This document shows, in pieces, positions 4,007 to 43,260 of a stretch of DNA of 64,000 nucleotides. Positions within the stretch are counted from its first letter, which is position 1. Every line of letters begins with the position of its first letter. The notes beneath the pieces were generated by a model. That model did no database searches and was not told where the DNA came from. It saw only the letters and a list, made by a program, of their open reading frames with translations. The DNA is from Escherichia phage KBNP1711, in the sequence record NC_023593.1. One strand, 5' to 3'. The translations under genes and the position numbers were made by a program.

Positions 4007-6250
4007 ATGGCTAAGAAGAATTTTAGTGAAGATGTATTGGATGAACTGCGCGTTGATCTTCAACGTCGATTCAACTACGCTCAAGGCTACGTAGATATCG
4101 CTGTAAAAGGCTATGCTCGTGAAGCTTGGGAATATTTTTATGGGAACCTTCCTGCTCCAGTTACAGCTGGTAGTTCTAGTTGGGTCGATCGTACAGTATG
4201 GGAATCAGTAAACGGTACACTCCAAGATATCATCAACGTATTCTGTTCAGGTGATGAAGCAGTAACGTTTGTAGCGGACAACCAAGCAGATAGTGATGCA
4301 GCTGACGTAGCAACTAAGCTCGTTAACCAAATCCTGTTGCGTGATAATCCGGGATACAATGTTATTTCCTCAGCGGCACAAGAGTGTCTTGTCACTCGTA
4401 ACTCTTTTATCAAATACTATTGGGATGAACAAACCTCCACTCAGACAGAAGAGGCAGAGGGCGTACCTCCAGAAGCACTTGCTGCATATGTGCAGGGATT
4501 AGAGGCTGGCGGTCTTGAAGATTTAGAAGTATTTACCACTGATAATGATGACGGTACAGTGGACGTCAAGGTTAACTACAAACAAACAGTAAAGCGTGTG
4601 AAGGTTGAGTATGTCCCTTCCGAACAAATCTTTGTAGATGAACATGCAACCAGCTTTGCTGATGCACAATATTTCTGTCATCGTGTACGTCGTTCTAAAG
4701 AAGATCTCGTAGCTATGGGTTTCCCTAAAGATGAGATTGAAGCTTTTAACGATTGGACGGATACGATGGACACTACCCAATCGACTGTTGCTTGGTCACG
4801 TACTGACTGGCGTCAGGATATAGATTCAGATATCGGTGTAGACACTGATGATATCGCTTCTATGGTTTGGGTTTATGAACATTACATCCGTACTGGTGTA
4901 CTGGATAAGAATAAAGAAGCAAAACTCTATCAGGTTATTCAAGCAGGTGAGCATATTCTCAGTTGTGAAGAAGTAACCAGTATTCCGTTCGTAACTTTCT
5001 GCCCATACCCAATTCCGGGTTCATTTTATGGTCAGTCTGTCTATGACATTACGAAAGATATCCAAGATTTACGTACCGCACTGGTTCGTGGTTATATTGA
5101 TAACGTAAACAATGCTAACTATGGTCGTTATAAAGCGATTGTAGGGGCGTATGACCGTCGCTCTTTGCTAGACAACCGTCCGGGTGGCGTTGTTGAAATG
5201 GAGCGTCAGGATGCGATTGACTTATTCCCATACCATAATCTACCTCAGGGTATCGATGGTCTGTTGGGAATGTCTGAAGAATTGAAAGAAACTCGTACAG
5301 GTGTCACTAAGCTCGGAATGGGTATTAACCCTGATGTGTTTAAGAATGACAACGCCTATGCTACTGTAGGTTTGATGATGAATGCAGCTCAGAACCGTCT
5401 CCGTATGGTATGTCGTAACATTGCACATAACGGTATGGTTGAGTTAATGCGTGGAATCTACAACCTTATCAGAGAGAATGGTGAAACCCCTTTACAGGTT
5501 CAAACACCTCGTGGAATGGTTCAGGTAAATCCAAAACAATTACCACCTCGTCACAATTTACAAGTTGTTGTAGCTATCTCTCCTAATGAGAAAGCAGAAC
5601 GTGCACAGAAATTGATTAGTCTGAAACAGCTGATTGCTGCTGACCAACAGTTAGCACCTCTCTTTACTCTGGAGCAAGATCGTTATATGACTGCACAAAT
5701 CTTTGAGTTGATGGGAATTAAGGATACTCATAAATACTTAATGCCTCTTGAGCAGTATCAGCCACCGCAGCCGTCTCCAATGGAAATTCTCCAGCTGGAA
5801 ATGACTAAAGCTCAGGTTGAGAACGTACAGGCTTCTTCTCAGAAGATGATTGCTGATGCATTCGACCAGCGTGAACGTACTACATTCGAACAGCAGAAAG
5901 CTGCCGATGAGTTCAGTCTGAAGCAGGAAGAGTTGCAGTTCAAGCAAGAAAATGCAGCAGACGTAATGACCTTAGAGAATCGTAAGGAAGACAATAGTGC
6001 TACTCTGGAACAAGCTAAACACAAGTTGTCTCTTCTTCAGCAGCAGGTTCGTCAGTATGAATCCGTACTGAAAGAACTACAGATGGTCATGGACCATCAG
6101 GTTGACCAAGAGAAGATTGTTGCTCAAGCACAAATTCAGGATAAGACTTTGGAACTCCAAAAGAAAGAGTCAAATGTAACTAAGAAAGACCAACAGAAGA
6201 CTCTAAAAGATTCTAGGATTCCTAACAGACGTCTTGGTAGTAAAAAATAA
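4007..6250 (+). CDS. portal protein
   Basis: 747-aa ORF directly after terL with coiled-coil C-terminus; GAGGGAGAG RBS. Confidence 0.75.
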   Translation: MAKKNFSEDVLDELRVDLQRRFNYAQGYVDIAVKGYAREAWEYFYGNLPAPVTAGSSSWVDRTVWESVNGTLQDIINVFCSGDEAVTFVADNQADSDAADVATKLVNQILLRDNPGYNVISSAAQECLVTRNSFIKYYWDEQTSTQTEEAEGVPPEALAAYVQGLEAGGLEDLEVFTTDNDDGTVDVKVNYKQTVKRVKVEYVPSEQIFVDEHATSFADAQYFCHRVRRSKEDLVAMGFPKDEIEAFNDWTDTMDTTQSTVAWSRTDWRQDIDSDIGVDTDDIASMVWVYEHYIRTGVLDKNKEAKLYQVIQAGEHILSCEEVTSIPFVTFCPYPIPGSFYGQSVYDITKDIQDLRTALVRGYIDNVNNANYGRYKAIVGAYDRRSLLDNRPGGVVEMERQDAIDLFPYHNLPQGIDGLLGMSEELKETRTGVTKLGMGINPDVFKNDNAYATVGLMMNAAQNRLRMVCRNIAHNGMVELMRGIYNLIRENGETPLQVQTPRGMVQVNPKQLPPRHNLQVVVAISPNEKAERAQKLISLKQLIAADQQLAPLFTLEQDRYMTAQIFELMGIKDTHKYLMPLEQYQPPQPSPMEILQLEMTKAQVENVQASSQKMIADAFDQRERTTFEQQKAADEFSLKQEELQFKQENAADVMTLENRKEDNSATLEQAKHKLSLLQQQVRQYESVLKELQMVMDHQVDQEKIVAQAQIQDKTLELQKKESNVTKKDQQKTLKDSRIPNRRLGSKK

Positions 6251-20727: not shown

Positions 20728-21762
20728 ATGGCATATGGAATATGGACAAGACCTGTTGGTCCAGGTCCGGCGGCACCTGCTGACATTTACATCGATAGTG
20801 GTAGCACGTTTCCTCAACTCAAGAATAGAGTTAGCGGTAACTTTGCATTTAGTGGAAACATATGTGACCTCCCTATAAACGGGTGGGATGGAAGTGGTCA
20901 AATAGTTATTGTCCCGACAGGTTCTGTGGTATGGGAAAGATACATACCGCCTAATGTGACCTCAGACGTATACTGGATAAACAATATCTCAGTTATTAAT
21001 AACTCTACTTTTCGAGTTACTATGGATTATAATGTTAATGGGTGGGTCTTTGATATGGCTTTTAATGTATATCAGATATGGCCTAGAGCTAATAGAAACT
21101 ACGGAATTACTTTTTCTAACACAGCTGATTACTTCTCTATTTCTGACTCTGGCACTGTTGGTCAGTGTATCTGGGCTTGGGAAGGTGATATAAACGGCTC
21201 TCTTCAGATACCAGATATTGGAGGTTTTGATATGAGCCGGGCAACTGTTTATGCAAACTGGAGTCACGGAGGGGCTGGGTTGTTGTATAACCCATCTAAC
21301 AGAGTTGTTTATGTGTACCAAAACAGATCTCACGATAATAGTAACACAAACCAAACAGGGTCTATTGGTGGTGTTAGGATTGCTGTTTTCTGCGATGGTT
21401 CTGGAGTACCAACTCACAACGGTGGCCTAAATATCTTTTCCCCAAATGGGTCTCAGTGCGTATTCTCTACCTACAGAACCCCTTTTAGTGTTGAAGGGTT
21501 TATGCCTATGAGTGGAGGTAATACATCTCTGGCCTATCCAATGATACCACTGTCTTATGGGGCTGGGGCTATACGAGGAAGTGCTAGTGGTTGGTACTTT
21601 CAACACACAAGATCTCATATGATGAATGGATCTTCTTTTGGGACAGGGTATGGAAGAATGATATACTCTTGGTCAAATCAGTATGATCTCGGTGGTGGGG
21701 GTGCTCTAGGATTAAGTATTCCGGTATTAGACGCCAAGAAGATTTTTAGAAGCATACAATAA
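20728..21762 (+). CDS. virion structural protein
   Basis: ORF track; structural context. Confidence 0.4.
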   Translation: MAYGIWTRPVGPGPAAPADIYIDSGSTFPQLKNRVSGNFAFSGNICDLPINGWDGSGQIVIVPTGSVVWERYIPPNVTSDVYWINNISVINNSTFRVTMDYNVNGWVFDMAFNVYQIWPRANRNYGITFSNTADYFSISDSGTVGQCIWAWEGDINGSLQIPDIGGFDMSRATVYANWSHGGAGLLYNPSNRVVYVYQNRSHDNSNTNQTGSIGGVRIAVFCDGSGVPTHNGGLNIFSPNGSQCVFSTYRTPFSVEGFMPMSGGNTSLAYPMIPLSYGAGAIRGSASGWYFQHTRSHMMNGSSFGTGYGRMIYSWSNQYDLGGGGALGLSIPVLDAKKIFRSIQ

Positions 21763-35794: not shown

Positions 35795-35803
35795 TATACA
35801 TTA
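35795..35803 (-). promoter_or_regulatory. TAATGTATA motif (- strand)
   Basis: + strand 'tatacatta'; 58 nt upstream of SSB-like gene start. Confidence 0.4.
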
Positions 35804-35866: not shown

Positions 35867-35875
35867 TAATGTATA
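35867..35875 (+). promoter_or_regulatory. TAATGTATA motif (+ strand, faces away from flanking genes)
   Basis: Exact motif in the 414-bp intergenic region. Confidence 0.3.
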
Positions 35876-36319: not shown

Positions 36320-36788
36320 CAAAGGTCTTCCTAATCTCTTGCAGAGATACAGCTTTAAAGTTGATTTGTTCCATCGAAGTACAGAAGTATCTCCAATCAT
36401 CAATCACATGATTATGAGTATGAGCATAGATGTTGAACTTCCCTCTCATTTCATCAGAGTGAATAGGAATGTGAGTTACCCAAAACTCTTTGTACTTGAA
36501 GTCACCTGATACAGTTCTGAACACTTTCATAATCTGTGGTAATAAATCCAGCCTGTCATGGTTCCCTAAGACAAGATGTTTCTCACCCTTAATCTCATAG
36601 ATGATATCCAGTGCATATGGTTCAAACACCCAATCACCAGTAAAGAAAGTCTTATCACGTTTAGTCACATGGTCAAACGCTGAAAGAATTGCTTTGTCAT
36701 GTTCTTCAATACTGCCGAACTGTTTACGAAACTTGCAGATGTTACGATGACCTAAGTGACCATCTCCTGCGAAATATACCTCAGCCAT
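36282..36788 (-). CDS. metallophosphoesterase (calcineurin-like)
   Basis: 'GDGHLGH', 'GDWV', 'GNHD', 'HTHNH' metal-binding motifs. Confidence 0.65.
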   Translation of the reverse strand: MAEVYFAGDGHLGHRNICKFRKQFGSIEEHDKAILSAFDHVTKRDKTFFTGDWVFEPYALDIIYEIKGEKHLVLGNHDRLDLLPQIMKVFRTVSGDFKYKEFWVTHIPIHSDEMRGKFNIYAHTHNHVIDDWRYFCTSMEQINFKAVSLQEIRKTFDERRKEQGIITI

Positions 36789-39284: not shown

Positions 39285-39766
39285 TCAATGTGTGTGATTC
39301 CAGTTTAATCCTATCTGACAATCAGATGCCAGAGGACATTCCATCTTGAGGTACTCACCAGCTTTCTTAACACAAAGCTCTGTAAGCTCTTTTAGCTTTT
39401 GTGCATCATTACGGTGAACAGAGAACTGCCCTTCATCGTGCATGTCAATAACCTTCGCACAACGAACACCATCACGCTCAATCCACTTGTTAAGGAAAAG
39501 CATGGCATACTTCATAACAATCGCACCAGCACTCTGTAATAGGGTATTCAGTGCTTTATGAACCATTACCTTACCTGTTGCATCACGTCTCATTGTAACA
39601 CGACGACCATCAACACCCAAGATATAACCTTGAGCTGCCTTCTCTGTCATACGTTCAATAAGAATTGCAATACAAGGATTCTCTGCCAAGAAACGTGCTC
39701 TCATTACTGCACCTTCTTCAGAGCCTCCACCAACGATAGAACCGAGCTTAGCATCACCTGCCCCAT
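39285..39766 (-). CDS. DNA polymerase (family A), exon 2
   Basis: 'GAGDAKLGSIVGG...ALNTLLQSAGA...HDE' matches the T7 DNA polymerase C-terminus; frame open upstream of track start 39704. Confidence 0.7.
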
Positions 39767-40547
39767 CAATAGTTCAAGCAAAGGCGCTACTCTTTGCTCC
39801 GTTCTCTTATGAACTGCTTACAGTTTCCTGTAAGATCGGACTATATCTTCATCTCCACCTTTACGTGCTGAGAGACAGGCGCTTCCGTAACACTTGTTAC
39901 GTACTCCCTTCCGGGATAGTCTCTGAACTTTCCGTGACACAAACTTTTCTACATAGATCAATGAACTGAGCATCAGATAGTTTACCTTTTGCATTATTCA
40001 CTTCCCAAGTTACCCATTGGACATTTCCAATTTCGTAACCTTTCGAATTATCCTTCCTATCTAAAGAAAGTTTATTCGGATGTCCGCTGACGAAAGATAG
40101 TGAATCTCCTGTCAAGGCACATTTGTAGTTTTGCTGAGAAAGAAGCTCGAATAAATAGTCTTGAGTAATCGTGAACTCAAAACCCCTTTCTCTAGCTCTG
40201 TGATGGGAGTTGTGATATCTCTCACGAACCGCTCCACCCCAAGTTTGTCGATATTGTCCCATAGCAGCAGATGCTGCACTTCTGTTTCGACGTCTCCACT
40301 CATTTGAAGCAATGAGAGCACAATTTTTTACATTGACATTGCTTTCCATCTTTACTCTTAGATGAATTATGGAAACTGTCGAGTGGCTTTTCTTCGCCAC
40401 AGCTTGAACATATCTTTGTCATAAACACCTCCTTGTGTTGATGTTTATGTCACGGCTTAGCTGCTGATTGGCATATCTTTCGACTTAGCTTTCCAGCAAT
40501 TCACCTGTTTTGCTTCTGCACATTTCTATGCAGTGAACCAATTATTT
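39767..40547 (-). mobile_element. group I intron (putative) interrupting DNA polymerase motif B
   Basis: Exon 1 ends on U, intron ends on G; splicing restores 'KTFIYAFNYGAGD'. Confidence 0.55.
39897..40400 (-). CDS. intron-encoded HNH homing endonuclease
   Basis: 'SLDRKDNSKGYEIGNVQWVTWEVNNAKG' HNH-type motif; ORF lies within the intron. Confidence 0.6.
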   Translation of the reverse strand: MAKKSHSTVSIIHLRVKMESNVNVKNCALIASNEWRRRNRSAASAAMGQYRQTWGGAVRERYHNSHHRARERGFEFTITQDYLFELLSQQNYKCALTGDSLSFVSGHPNKLSLDRKDNSKGYEIGNVQWVTWEVNNAKGKLSDAQFIDLCRKVCVTESSETIPEGST

Positions 40548-41910
40548 AGTTAAAGGCATATATAAATGTCTTCGCATTGTCACGAGTAGGAAGACCAGCA
40601 AGTCTCTGATTATGAGAATGGATATCACCTTCTAACAGAATATCACGATACATAACAGCAGAAGCTAAACCACGTTCAGCTAATGCTTTCTTACCAGCGT
40701 TACCTTCTGCAATTGCTTCAGCAAGCATGTCTCTACACTCTTTAATGAGGTAGTGAGCAAGCATACGAAGCTCTAATCCAGAACCATCATAACCTAGGAA
40801 GAGTTCTCTACCAGCTGGTACATAATACTTATATAACCCTACTGGTTTGTCTTTCTTTCCGGGTTTTCCACGTTCGTAGATAACGTTTGTATTTTTTCGT
40901 AAGTAACACCCATCAGGGATATTGTTGGTAATGATGAAAGGATAGTTATGACTATCATCTGTGGAGTAGTTAGATTGAAATAAACTCCTACACTCGTGAC
41001 CAAACAGACCGCGAGAAGGAATATTAACAACAATGCGATGTTTAAAACGAAATGTCGGAGTAGCGCAGCTATTAGCTTCCGCTGAGAGTTTACCATCTGG
41101 ACGTTCCTTATCAATCAGTCCATTAATCAAGCCTAGTCTGTGAGCCGCTACAACACGTCTCTTAAGCAGACTTCCCACCTTACCTAGATCACCCTCAAGA
41201 CCTTCTTCAAGAGTCTCTTCGAGGTTTGTAGGAGCTGTGGGCCACTTGTTCGAAGTAGCTAATGCTCTCTTAATTTCATCAAAGGTTACAGGTTTCTTCC
41301 TGTTAGGGTTTAAACCTAAACCAAAGACATAAGCCTTCATGTAGTTGACAGTTTTGTGACGAAAGTGCTTATCCAAGAATTTCTTGATATCAGCATCAAC
41401 CATCTGAGCTGTCTGTCGCTCTTTCTCATTGCCACGCATCCAAGAGTTGTACCATTCTTGATACGTTCCACACTTACGCAAGGCTCGCTTAATCTCAAAT
41501 GTGTTCCAAGGCTTCTTAGATGTATTAAATTCTGGAGGAAGAAAACCTTCATCCATCAGTGCTTCTTTAACTCGTGCATCCTTTGATGGGTCAAAGTCAA
41601 CATACTCAACACAAGTAAAAGCTCCACCGATATCTTCCCTCTTTAACCCCACTCTGTCACAATATAATTGAGGCCACTTCTGAAGAGCACCAGTCTTCTT
41701 AAAGGGTTTCATGTAAGTAGAACCATCAACCCTCATCTTAGGTAACAGAGGAATCAGCTCTCTGTCGATGTTAACGATAATCTCTCTGAGAAGGTGAACA
41801 TACCACCGTGCATTCCTCCGATTAAAGTTGACACCACTCTTCGCTTGCTTTGAAATTATATCAGCGACAGTCATCTCCGTTAAGAACGGAAGTACATCAG
41901 GGTTCTCCAT
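40548..41910 (-). CDS. DNA polymerase (family A), exon 1
   Basis: Motif A 'DGSGLELRMLAHY'; start of motif B 'RDNAKTFIY'; AAGGAG RBS. Confidence 0.7.
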
Positions 41911-41925
41911 CACCCTCTCCTTTTA

Positions 41926-42303: not shown

Positions 42304-42582
42304 TCACCCCTTAGGAAAAGGAATCAACAAATCAACTGCTGCTTGAATATCTTCTTGCACTTTAGGGTTTTTGTAAGAAACAAAACGGCCTTTGCTGTCT
42401 CGAAGCATCACATTAGTGCGGGCAGTTTCTTTAAACATTAAGATATTTTCAGCGGCATCCCTCTCTTCCATCATACCAAAATCCATAATATCTTCTGGAG
42501 CTGAGGCGATTTTGAGCTTGAAGGTCTGGCCTGTGCCGTTGTCGTAACGATCACTGATCTGGATAGTTTTCACCAGAGACAT
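42304..42582 (-). CDS. hypothetical small protein (tandem paralogue 1)
   Basis: Shares 'ARTNV.LR...G.F.SYKN..V...........L.PFPKG' with 42584..42841. Confidence 0.4.
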   Translation of the reverse strand: MSLVKTIQISDRYDNGTGQTFKLKIASAPEDIMDFGMMEERDAAENILMFKETARTNVMLRDSKGRFVSYKNPKVQEDIQAAVDLLIPFPKG

Positions 42583-42583
42583 A

Positions 42584-42841
42584 TTAAACTCCTTTAGGGA
42601 AAGGAAGAAGATTTTCTACTGCAACACGATAAACCTTTTCTACGTTTTTGTTTTTATAAGAGATGAACTTGCCATCAGCACCACGAAGGATTACGTTAGT
42701 TCGAGCTGTCTTTGGGTTATGAGAAATCTGATTAGCAATGATAGACGCGTTAAGAGCATTCTCAGCATAATTAGTGAAGTTCCATTTAACAAGTTTAGTA
42801 GAAAGAGAATCGATGATAGTTACAGTTTTTACGATAGACAT
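42584..42841 (-). CDS. hypothetical small protein (tandem paralogue 2)
   Basis: Paralogue of 42304..42582. Confidence 0.4.
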   Translation of the reverse strand: MSIVKTVTIIDSLSTKLVKWNFTNYAENALNASIIANQISHNPKTARTNVILRGADGKFISYKNKNVEKVYRVAVENLLPFPKGV

Positions 42842-42865: not shown

Positions 42866-42895
42866 TAAAAGAAAAGGCCACCCAAATGGGTAGCC
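42866..42895 (-). terminator. rho-independent terminator (- strand)
   Basis: 'ggctaccc attt gggtggcc' hairpin plus 'ttttctttt' on the - strand. Confidence 0.5.
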
Positions 42896-42900
42896 TCTGA

Positions 42901-43215
42901 TTAACTTGAGCTTAAAGCCCCTTTGCGACCGCCAGCTGATTTTCCAGCGCGATCTCCACTTTTGCCGCCAGCTGAACGATTTCCGCTGACTGTCTCAACA
43001 CGTAAGTTGCTTGACGCATTAGAGCCTCCTGATTTAATGGCTCGTTTGTGTCCGACATCTTTACCTTTGAGTGCAGATTTTCCAACGCGTTTTTCAACGA
43101 TGCGACGTGCACGGTGGCGCTGAGCATCTCCGCTCTTACTTCCAACTCCCGTTTCACCTCTTGCGATGGCTGTACGTCTTTCTTGTGCATAATCTCTTTT
43201 AGCCTTATCAGTCAT
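42901..43215 (-). CDS. basic Gly/Ser/Lys/Arg-rich protein (possible nucleic-acid-binding)
   Basis: Strong AAGGAG RBS; TAATGTATA motif 37 nt upstream. Confidence 0.45.
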   Translation of the reverse strand: MTDKAKRDYAQERRTAIARGETGVGSKSGDAQRHRARRIVEKRVGKSALKGKDVGHKRAIKSGGSNASSNLRVETVSGNRSAGGKSGDRAGKSAGGRKGALSSS

Positions 43216-43251
43216 TTACAACTCCTTAATATATCAGTGTACACTAAGGAG

Positions 43252-43260
43252 TATACATTA
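43252..43260 (-). promoter_or_regulatory. TAATGTATA motif (- strand)
   Basis: + strand 'tatacatta' upstream of 42901..43215. Confidence 0.45.

Follow-up and report, generated by a model that had tools for sequence, protein, structure and literature searches.

Evidence that gp58 of phiEco32-like phages is a zinc-free HNH-fold protein of the replication module

We analysed a 64,000-nucleotide stretch of DNA from Escherichia phage KBNP1711 (NC_023593.1; hereafter the window), a genome that we assign to the genus Kuravirus (phiEco32-like), with a focus on the small, highly basic protein encoded on its minus strand at 42901..43215. We identify this open reading frame (ORF) as the orthologue of phiEco32 gp58 (phi32_58), a core middle gene of the phiEco32-like phages. 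Remote homologues and structural modelling give good support to the view that gp58 is a cysteine-free, minimal zinc-free HNH (beta-beta-alpha-metal) nuclease-fold protein. As for its function, we hold, with reasonable but far from full confidence, that this replication-module HNH gene is expressed from the phage promoter P58 and that its product is most likely an endonuclease or nickase linked to replication or recombination.

Results

One of two overlapping frames encodes the gp58 orthologue

The original prediction, made from the sequence alone, described a highly basic 104-residue ORF without stating its strand, and pointed to an alternative ORF overlapping it in another frame. Both ORFs are present, on the minus strand:

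42901..43215, minus strand: coding sequence of the gp58 orthologue, 104 amino acids (MTDKAKRDY...GGRKGALSSS), assigned from the ORF list, PHROG 4590 and codon statistics
42912..43190, minus strand: overlapping ORF of 92 amino acids in the +1 frame, judged not to be a gene (synonymous fraction 0.064, no family matches)

The product of the longer ORF has a mass of 10.8 kDa and an isoelectric point (pI) of 11.5, and Gly, Arg, Ser, Ala and Lys together account for 70 residues out of 104. A search with 1.3 kb of DNA spanning the gene matched 97 phage records at 80–95% identity, nearly all of them Escherichia or Shigella phages of the phiEco32 type, and homologues of the product formed 276 clusters at 90% identity.

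For the frame test, we collected homologous loci, threaded their codons onto the protein alignment and counted codon differences in Kuravirus pairs and over all of the approximately 50 loci. Among the Kuravirus pairs, synonymous and non-synonymous differences numbered 199 and 96 in the main frame, 23 and 279 in the +1 frame, and 7 and 288 in the +2 frame; main-frame differences at codon positions 1, 2 and 3 numbered 110, 62 and 230. Over all loci, the synonymous fraction was 0.429 in the main frame, 0.064 in the +1 frame and 0.052 in the +2 frame. The product has also been seen: the 104-residue orthologue from the close relative SU10, CDS56 (10.8 kDa), was detected by mass spectrometry (2 peptides, 18.3% coverage; PMC4281155), which supplies the proteomic check of the frame that the original prediction had proposed. 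The main frame, 42901..43215, is a genuine protein-coding gene.

We give practically no weight to the possibility that the 92-residue ORF is the real gene or an additional one. The +1 frame is open in the window phage, SU10 and LUZ24, and its equivalent in LUZ24 is even annotated, as gp26, 'contains transmembrane domain'. However, its ratio of synonymous to non-synonymous differences is no better than that of the third frame, it carries up to 7 stops in distant homologues, and PHROG and Pfam searches with its product found no family matches. The protein detected in SU10 has the mass of the main-frame product. Moreover, the openness of the +1 frame is expected, because codons with T in second position are scarce in the main ORF: when its codons were shuffled, the +1 frame acquired 1.79 stops on average, and the real sequence has 2. 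The overlapping ORF is a by-product of codon composition.

In LUZ24 (AM910650 15622-15937; locus L003 3986-4301), gp26 is annotated in the +1 frame at L003 4032-4301 with a GTG start. The conserved family ORF there spans L003 3986-4297, encodes 103 amino acids and overlaps the end of 'DNA polymerase part I'. The gp26 annotation is probably a long-standing mis-annotation.

A conserved family that is essentially confined to phages

The window protein matched PHROG 4590 ('unknown function') with E=1.3e-39 over 97 of 100 profile positions; we know of no published function for this family. It is approximately 88% identical to phi32_58 and to SU10_56 (SU10 CDS56), and the gene order is the same. Likeness to these orthologues extends to the P58 promoter, the ribosome-binding site, the terminator and the position between PhoH and the polymerase; compared with phiEco32, the window phage differs in the N-terminal 6 residues and has a 61-amino-acid ORF upstream in place of gp59. 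The gene is among those common to all phiEco32-like phages, including 7-11 and GAP52 (PMC8948821 supplement). We also found it in every LUZ24-like Pseudomonas phage, in phages of Aeromonas, Proteus, Vibrio and Photobacterium, and in many phages known from metagenomes. A search of 1.8 billion proteins (as representatives) with the family profile returned 413 clusters. By contrast with this spread among phages, 185,579 bacterial and archaeal genomes (one per species) yielded only 6 family loci, mostly short fragments of metagenome-assembled genomes, so the family is essentially phage-only. Relatives are named HNH or McrA in several data sources, yet almost every one of the approximately 250 phage genomes with the gene has it annotated as 'hypothetical'.

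The composition of the protein had been described as low-complexity, a description that its conservation contradicts. Across an alignment of 84 sequences, 16 positions are invariant (E12, A16, R19, E21, T22, G25, S28, D30, R33, H34, H56, G63, N70, N79, G84 and K92) and a further 22 are nearly so. Conservation covers an N-terminal extension of approximately 28 residues (RDY..ER.TA..RGETG.GS.SGDA.RHRARR) and reaches into the Gly/Lys tail (GGK.G...GK..GGRKG). Cysteine is absent from the window protein and from 79 of the 84 homologues.

In a few uncultured phages, the whole module of approximately 85 amino acids (RDYK.EY...HNH) is fused to the C terminus of proteins of 250–960 amino acids (P0205, P0208, P0229, P0260 and P0265; loci L053 and L054). 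The N-terminal parts of these five fusions had no Pfam matches; a PD-(D/E)XK nuclease gene lies nearby.

A minimal HNH motif within a beta-beta-alpha-metal unit

The protein carries an HNH motif segment, DV[D/G]H-K..(L/I)KSGGSN..SNLR......N.S.GGK. Its H-N-N triad, H56, N70 and N79, is invariant in the 84 homologues; in a set of 142 remote relatives, conservation of H56 and of N79 is still at least 90%. In the AlphaFold2 model built with the family alignment, the predicted local distance difference test score (pLDDT) was 75 overall and 83–89 across residues 31-80, and strands 52-56 and 71-75 with helix 76-81 were modelled as a beta-beta-alpha-Me unit. All 19 Foldseek matches in the PDB contain an HNH nuclease domain, every one at E of at least 1.9, and fold matches in BFVD, mostly to phage proteins labelled 'HNHc domain containing', went down to E=1.8e-4.

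Sequence profiles lead to the same superfamily by way of relatives. The Pfam HNH family (PF01844) was matched by 48 of the 142 profile-detected relatives (best 2.3e-10), and others matched HNH_3, HNH_4 and HNH_5. The window protein itself gave a weak match to PHROG HNH (E=0.074), and the family profile matched PDB sequences only around E 1, best of all a Rhs HNH toxin. Because the relatives match Pfam HNH, homology to the HNH superfamily is well supported through intermediates. Within such a core, His56 would act as the general base, Asn70 would have a structural role and Asn79 would bind the metal.

The residue before His56 varies. In Cas9 HNH, T4 endonuclease VII and I-HmuI, the catalytic His is preceded by an Asp that serves as a metal ligand. 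At the equivalent position 55, 66 of the 84 members have D, 6 have H, 2 have E and 10 have G. D53 is present in 18 of 22 G55 variants, compared with 54 of 125 D55 members; even so, most members have D, H or E at position 53 whatever residue 55 is, and compensation of G55 by D53 is suggestive only.

A fixed place upstream of the family-A polymerase gene

PhoH and the DNA polymerase gene flank the gene within a replication module that is expressed in the middle phase; the late structural genes are on the other strand. Among the approximately 50 loci, 32 have a family-A DNA polymerase gene downstream on the same strand, and primase/helicase or 3'-5' exonuclease genes lie upstream. The order helicase, exonuclease, HNH gene, polymerase, with other genes on either side of the HNH gene, is shared by phiEco32, LUZ24 and the Photobacterium phage PhCF1.2. 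Pairwise identities of the HNH protein and the polymerase were correlated (Pearson 0.85, Spearman 0.77; 252 pairs, which are not independent of one another), and the HNH protein was the more conserved of the two, for example at 57% identity between Kuravirus and the LUZ24-like phages, against 33% for the polymerase. This co-divergence, together with the strong constraint, argues for a vertically inherited gene of the replication module and not a homing endonuclease.

It is accordingly very unlikely that gp58 is a selfish, free-standing homing endonuclease of the HNH type that settled between the genes for exonuclease and polymerase. HNH homing endonucleases such as I-HmuI share the HNH core with gp58 and are common in or beside phage polymerase genes, the window has one of its own inside a group I intron of the polymerase gene, and the LUZ24 gp58 homologue directly follows 'DNA polymerase part I'. 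Yet homing enzymes are distributed sporadically and have extra DNA-binding modules, whereas the gp58 gene is a highly conserved core gene that occupies a fixed position in essentially every Kuravirus record and in all LUZ24-like phages. A promoter, a 5' hairpin and a terminator, all conserved, belong to the gene itself, and its product has no separate DNA-recognition domain.

The polymerase gene of the window is split (39285..41913, minus strand) into a 455-amino-acid N-terminal part (40546..41913) and a 139-amino-acid C-terminal part (39285..39704; Pfam DNA_pol_A, E=5e-15). Between and around them are two matches to the Rfam group I intron family RF00028, at 39817-40074 (48.1 bits, E=2e-10) and 40259-40557 (34.7 bits), for which the gathering score is 50, and between them is an endonuclease ORF of 167 amino acids with an HNH-like C terminus (39897..40400). 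The phiEco32 polymerase is uninterrupted, at 614 amino acids.

The original prediction had proposed, from composition, a nucleic-acid-binding or internal head protein. A nucleic-acid function remains plausible for a basic protein with an HNH fold. The second proposal, a basic protein packaged inside the head or virion, draws on the very basic composition and on the recovery of the SU10 orthologue from a phage preparation. That preparation was concentrated with polyethylene glycol only, without purification on caesium chloride, and its authors class the protein with the middle gene products (PMC4281155). A gene that sits among replication genes behind a middle promoter, with the late structural cluster on the other strand, and a product with a nuclease-type fold also speak against a head role, which we find highly improbable.

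How gp58 compares with known HNH proteins

The small terminase-associated phage HNH nickases (Gme HNH Gmet_0936/4h9d, GVE2 HNH/5h0o, N.phiGamma and HK97 gp74) resemble gp58 in their length of approximately 100 amino acids, their beta-beta-alpha-Me core and their encoding by phages. These proteins have a [CxxC]2 zinc site, and their genes lie beside the cos site and the terminase genes (PMC3592412; PMC3765158). The gp58 family lacks the zinc cysteines, and its genes lie tens of kilobases from the terminase: phiEco32 has its large terminase gene at 2.2-3.8 kb, whereas gp58 is found at 42.6 kb. It further differs from these nickases in its replication-module setting, middle-phase expression and Gly/Lys tail.

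The HNH domains of Cas9, IscB and Cas8-HNH share with gp58 a D-H...N...N pattern without zinc cysteines and are found among its fold matches. Relatives of the window protein gave a weak match to NCBIfam IscB (E=0.004), and some phage records call homologues 'Cas9-like'. However, those domains are parts of large RNA-guided enzymes, whereas gp58 stands alone at approximately 100 amino acids with no guide-RNA machinery, and the likeness is limited to the catalytic core.

A probable endonuclease and its main rival

From the phage-only distribution of the family, its fixed place between the primase or helicase–exonuclease genes and the family-A polymerase gene, and its co-divergence with the polymerase, we infer a divalent-metal-dependent DNA endonuclease. 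Such an enzyme would most likely be nicking or structure-specific and would act on phage DNA in replication, recombination or preparation for packaging, in the middle phase of infection and in concert with the replication proteins. The conserved Gly/Lys tail probably contacts DNA.

Several observations weigh against this endonuclease. The window protein itself had no Pfam or NCBIfam match even at E<=1. Its residue 55 is Gly (DVGHKR), so that the DH or HH motif is absent, and G55 may weaken activity in the window phage and its close relatives. A literature search found no nuclease assay for any family member. A screen of the window and phiEco32 for strand-exclusive over-represented 8-12-mers, made de novo, found no enriched motif shared by the two of the kind seen in LUZ24 (see below). 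Finally, the combination of promoter, strong ribosome-binding site and terminator suggests an abundant protein, which stoichiometric DNA binding would fit at least equally well.

G55 and the signs of high expression suggest the main rival, to which we give clearly less credence, as a possible but not a probable account: a catalytically inactive or attenuated HNH-fold protein that acts as a stoichiometric basic DNA- or RNA-binding factor. Such a protein might have an architectural role, or it might assist the split exonuclease/polymerase replicase as an accessory or processivity factor. In its favour, G55 replaces the metal-ligand Asp in the Kuravirus clade, the pI is 11.5 and the Gly/Lys tail is conserved. 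The gene is the first after a phage promoter, has a strong Shine-Dalgarno (SD) sequence and is directly followed by a terminator, all of which point to high abundance; it is tightly co-inherited with an exonuclease-less family-A polymerase; and the SU10 orthologue was detectable by mass spectrometry in a crude phage preparation. Against it, inactivated HNH domains usually lose their H, N and N residues, whereas the complete triad is kept in 84 of 84 homologues and H56 and N79 persist in the remote relatives, and most members (74 of 84) have D, H or E at position 55. With Gly at position 55 and D53 retained, catalysis by the window protein is plausible but not assured, and an endonuclease remains the reading that we favour for gp58.

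Expression signals around the gene

Four sequence elements flank the coding sequence:

43252..43260, minus strand: TAATGTATA, promoter element of the holoenzyme of RNA polymerase with the phage sigma factor gp36, counterpart by orthology of the phiEco32 middle promoter P58 (exact match to the published consensus tAATGTAtA)
43222..43227, minus strand: SD sequence AAGGAG, 6 nucleotides before the ATG (read from the sequence; invariant in the Kuravirus alignment)
43217..43255, minus strand: predicted RNA hairpin in which the anti-SD sequence ACUCCUUA is paired with the SD region UAAGGAGU (folding)
42873..42898, minus strand: intrinsic terminator-like hairpin with a U-run, beginning 3 nucleotides past the stop codon (terminator scan)

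The strong ribosome-binding site and the upstream promoter motif of the original prediction were thus both recovered, as AAGGAG at 43227..43222 and TAATGTATA at 43260..43252 on the minus strand; the terminator directly behind the stop codon adds to that description. The minus-strand sequence upstream of the gene reads ...CATAATGTATACTCCTTAGTGTACACTGATATATTAAGGAGTTGTAAATG, with TAATGTATA standing 37 nucleotides upstream of the gene. The window has 6 exact copies of the element against 0.48 expected, a number that none of 100 shuffles reached, and phiEco32 has the same element upstream of gene 58 (position 42937, minus strand).

The single-element promoter TAATGTATA is recognised by Escherichia coli RNA polymerase with the phiEco32 sigma factor gp36, and six gp36 promoters have been found experimentally, upstream of genes 6, 13, 26, 40, 58 and 68 (PMC4331800; PMC8948821). 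Their start sites lie 6-8 bp downstream of the element (PMC8948821), and a P58 equivalent of TAATGTATA is given for every phage of the phiEco32 subgroup (PMC8948821 supplement). We accordingly identify the element upstream of the window gene, by orthology, as the P58 equivalent already known for the group, and by analogy the start site in the window phage would also fall 6-8 bp past it. Six Kuravirus sequences are identical over the 42 nucleotides that run from the promoter element up to the ATG, but beyond the element, further upstream, their DNA is entirely different.

This invariant stretch contains the predicted hairpin. The sequence ACTCCTTA follows TAATGTATA directly on its 3' side and is complementary to the SD region, TAAGGAGT, 16 nucleotides downstream. 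The hairpin over the ribosome-binding site had a minimum free energy of -14.9 kcal/mol (z=-3.2), and none of 200 shuffles folded as well. In modelled RNA initiated at P58, 6-8 bp past the element, the anti-SD sequence is left out and the SD sequence is free (-1 to -3 kcal/mol), whereas in modelled read-through RNA from upstream the SD sequence is sequestered (about -20 kcal/mol). The other five TAATGTATA sites in the window have no downstream anti-SD sequence, which indicates that it is not part of the promoter consensus. Anti-SD/SD hairpins of different sequence and geometry occur at three further loci, L008, L051 and L009 (z=-6.5, -5.4 and -2.5), each with a TA[AT]TGTA[TA]A-like element in the loop; the family proteins of L008 and L051 are 74% and 71% identical to that of the window. 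This conserved hairpin logic could mean that gp58 is translated only from the mRNA of its own promoter, P58; instead of such gating, the hairpin might serve as a site for RNase III, or the sequence as an operator at the DNA level.

The terminator has an 11-pair stem with 6 G-C pairs and a 4-nucleotide loop, followed by UCUUUUAU; stem and U-run are kept in phiEco32 and in three IMG/VR relatives (L004, L005 and L006). Because P58 is the nearest upstream promoter of the genes that run to the DNA polymerase gene, the terminator probably attenuates transcription into these genes rather than ending it, and with such attenuation, no other gene of the unit would be expressed as highly as gp58. In the proposed scheme, gp58 would be transcribed from P58 by host RNA polymerase with gp36 and translated from its strong SD sequence, and the intrinsic terminator behind it would lower downstream transcription.

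Elsewhere in the window, two TAATGTATA elements point apart at a distance of 64 bp, at 35795-35803 (minus strand) and 35867-35875 (plus strand), and phiEco32 has the same divergent pair, at 36632 (minus) and 36704 (plus). A further exact TAATGTATA at 21063-21071 (plus strand), inside the late region, has no exact-match counterpart in phiEco32. Directly past the terminator, two adjacent minus-strand paralogues of 92 and 85 amino acids (42304..42582 and 42584..42841) match PHROG 6814 (unknown function; E=2e-33 and 3e-36). Some records label the orthologue 'autotransporter adhesin', which looks spurious; where this label appears among the DNA matches, it belongs to the neighbouring gp57 orthologue and not to gp58.

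The nick motif of LUZ24-like phages

Localized single-strand interruptions of virion DNA, and the motif at which they occur, are documented in tf, Rembedalsseter and LUZ24-like phages, and neither of the two papers names the nicking enzyme (PMC3517423; PMC11780129). The gp58 family might supply it, as the site-specific nickase behind these interruptions at WACTRTGAC. An HNH nickase is a natural candidate for the LUZ24/tf-like system (TACTRTGAC), a homologue is present in all of the LUZ24-like phages, including tf, TL, LUZ24 and Rembedalsseter, and the closest solved fold is an HNH nicking endonuclease. As a positive control, our k-mer test recovered GTACTATGAC in LUZ24 (7/0 between the strands, P=8e-16), and WACTRTGMC stands at 6/0 in PhCF1.2, which carries the gene.

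We nevertheless consider this nickase role for the family improbable. Co-occurrence does not discriminate, because any core gene of the LUZ24-like lineage would give the same pattern. Unlike the LUZ24/tf-like phages, Kuravirus genomes are not enriched in the motif: WACTRTGMC occurs 2 times in the window, one per strand, against 4.45 expected, and 1 and 2 times in phiEco32. Timing also counts against it, since nicks come back late in phiKMV-like phages and T5 has its nicking genes in the late region (PMC3517423), whereas the gp58 gene is middle or early.

In PhCF1.2 (L065), the WACTRTGMC sites lie at 4196, 5139, 7041, 9623, 15202 and 28306, on one strand only with 0 on the other. The genome architecture of this phage is LUZ24-like, so the nicking system may extend beyond Pseudomonas phages.

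Two candidates from the k-mer screen were rejected as nick motifs. AGGTGGTACA, the top-scoring motif of the window, occurs 5 times on the plus strand (11939, 16358, 17354, 26446 and 43305) and 0 times on the minus strand (expected 0.09, P=4e-8), and this test scored it above the known promoter motif. No longer consensus surrounds its copies, phiEco32 lacks it, and it is likely to be codon-level (GGT-GGT-ACA) or strain-specific. CACGGGGAAA, the top-scoring motif of phiEco32, has five copies on one strand (P=3e-10), at L056 65 and 92 and, on L057, at phiEco32 77070, 77426 and 77453. Four of these are in left-end and right-end sequence, identical around the copies, and one lies about 350 bp inside the right end; being in or near the phiEco32 terminal repeats, with the exact 10-mer absent from the window, CACGGGGAAA was discarded as a shared nick motif. 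It is possibly a packaging or end-recognition signal. The window has a single copy of its core, ACGGGGAA, at 352 on the plus strand.

Discussion

Our analysis is a re-annotation and does not overturn current understanding: the gp58 orthologous group and the P58 promoter were already known for the phiEco32-like phages. Our additions are the proof of the coding frame, the placement of the protein in a zinc-free HNH family of its own with ties to the phage replicase, a model for the 5' hairpin and the negative nick-motif test in Kuravirus.

A bolder proposal goes further, and we put it forward with little confidence. The zinc-free mini-HNH protein would be the missing site-specific nickase or replication-initiating nuclease of a large set of podophages (LUZ24/tf-like, phiEco32-like, 7-11-like and marine relatives), nicking LUZ24-like DNA at TACTRTGAC and Kuravirus DNA at a few sites, as a partner of the family-A polymerase that lacks an exonuclease. 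Only transcripts from its own gp36-dependent promoter would allow the protein to be made, because the anti-SD hairpin would silence those that read through from upstream.

The Kuravirus motif test does not support the same motif in that genus; the gp58 family is nonetheless a concrete candidate for the nicking enzyme of the tf/LUZ24-like phages. The anti-SD hairpin embedded in the promoter offers a compact case in which the choice of promoter could decide whether an mRNA is translated. Several phiEco32-, 7-11- and LUZ24-like phages are used in phage therapy, and recognition of the HNH motif gives a testable function to one of the few genes that these three groups have in common.

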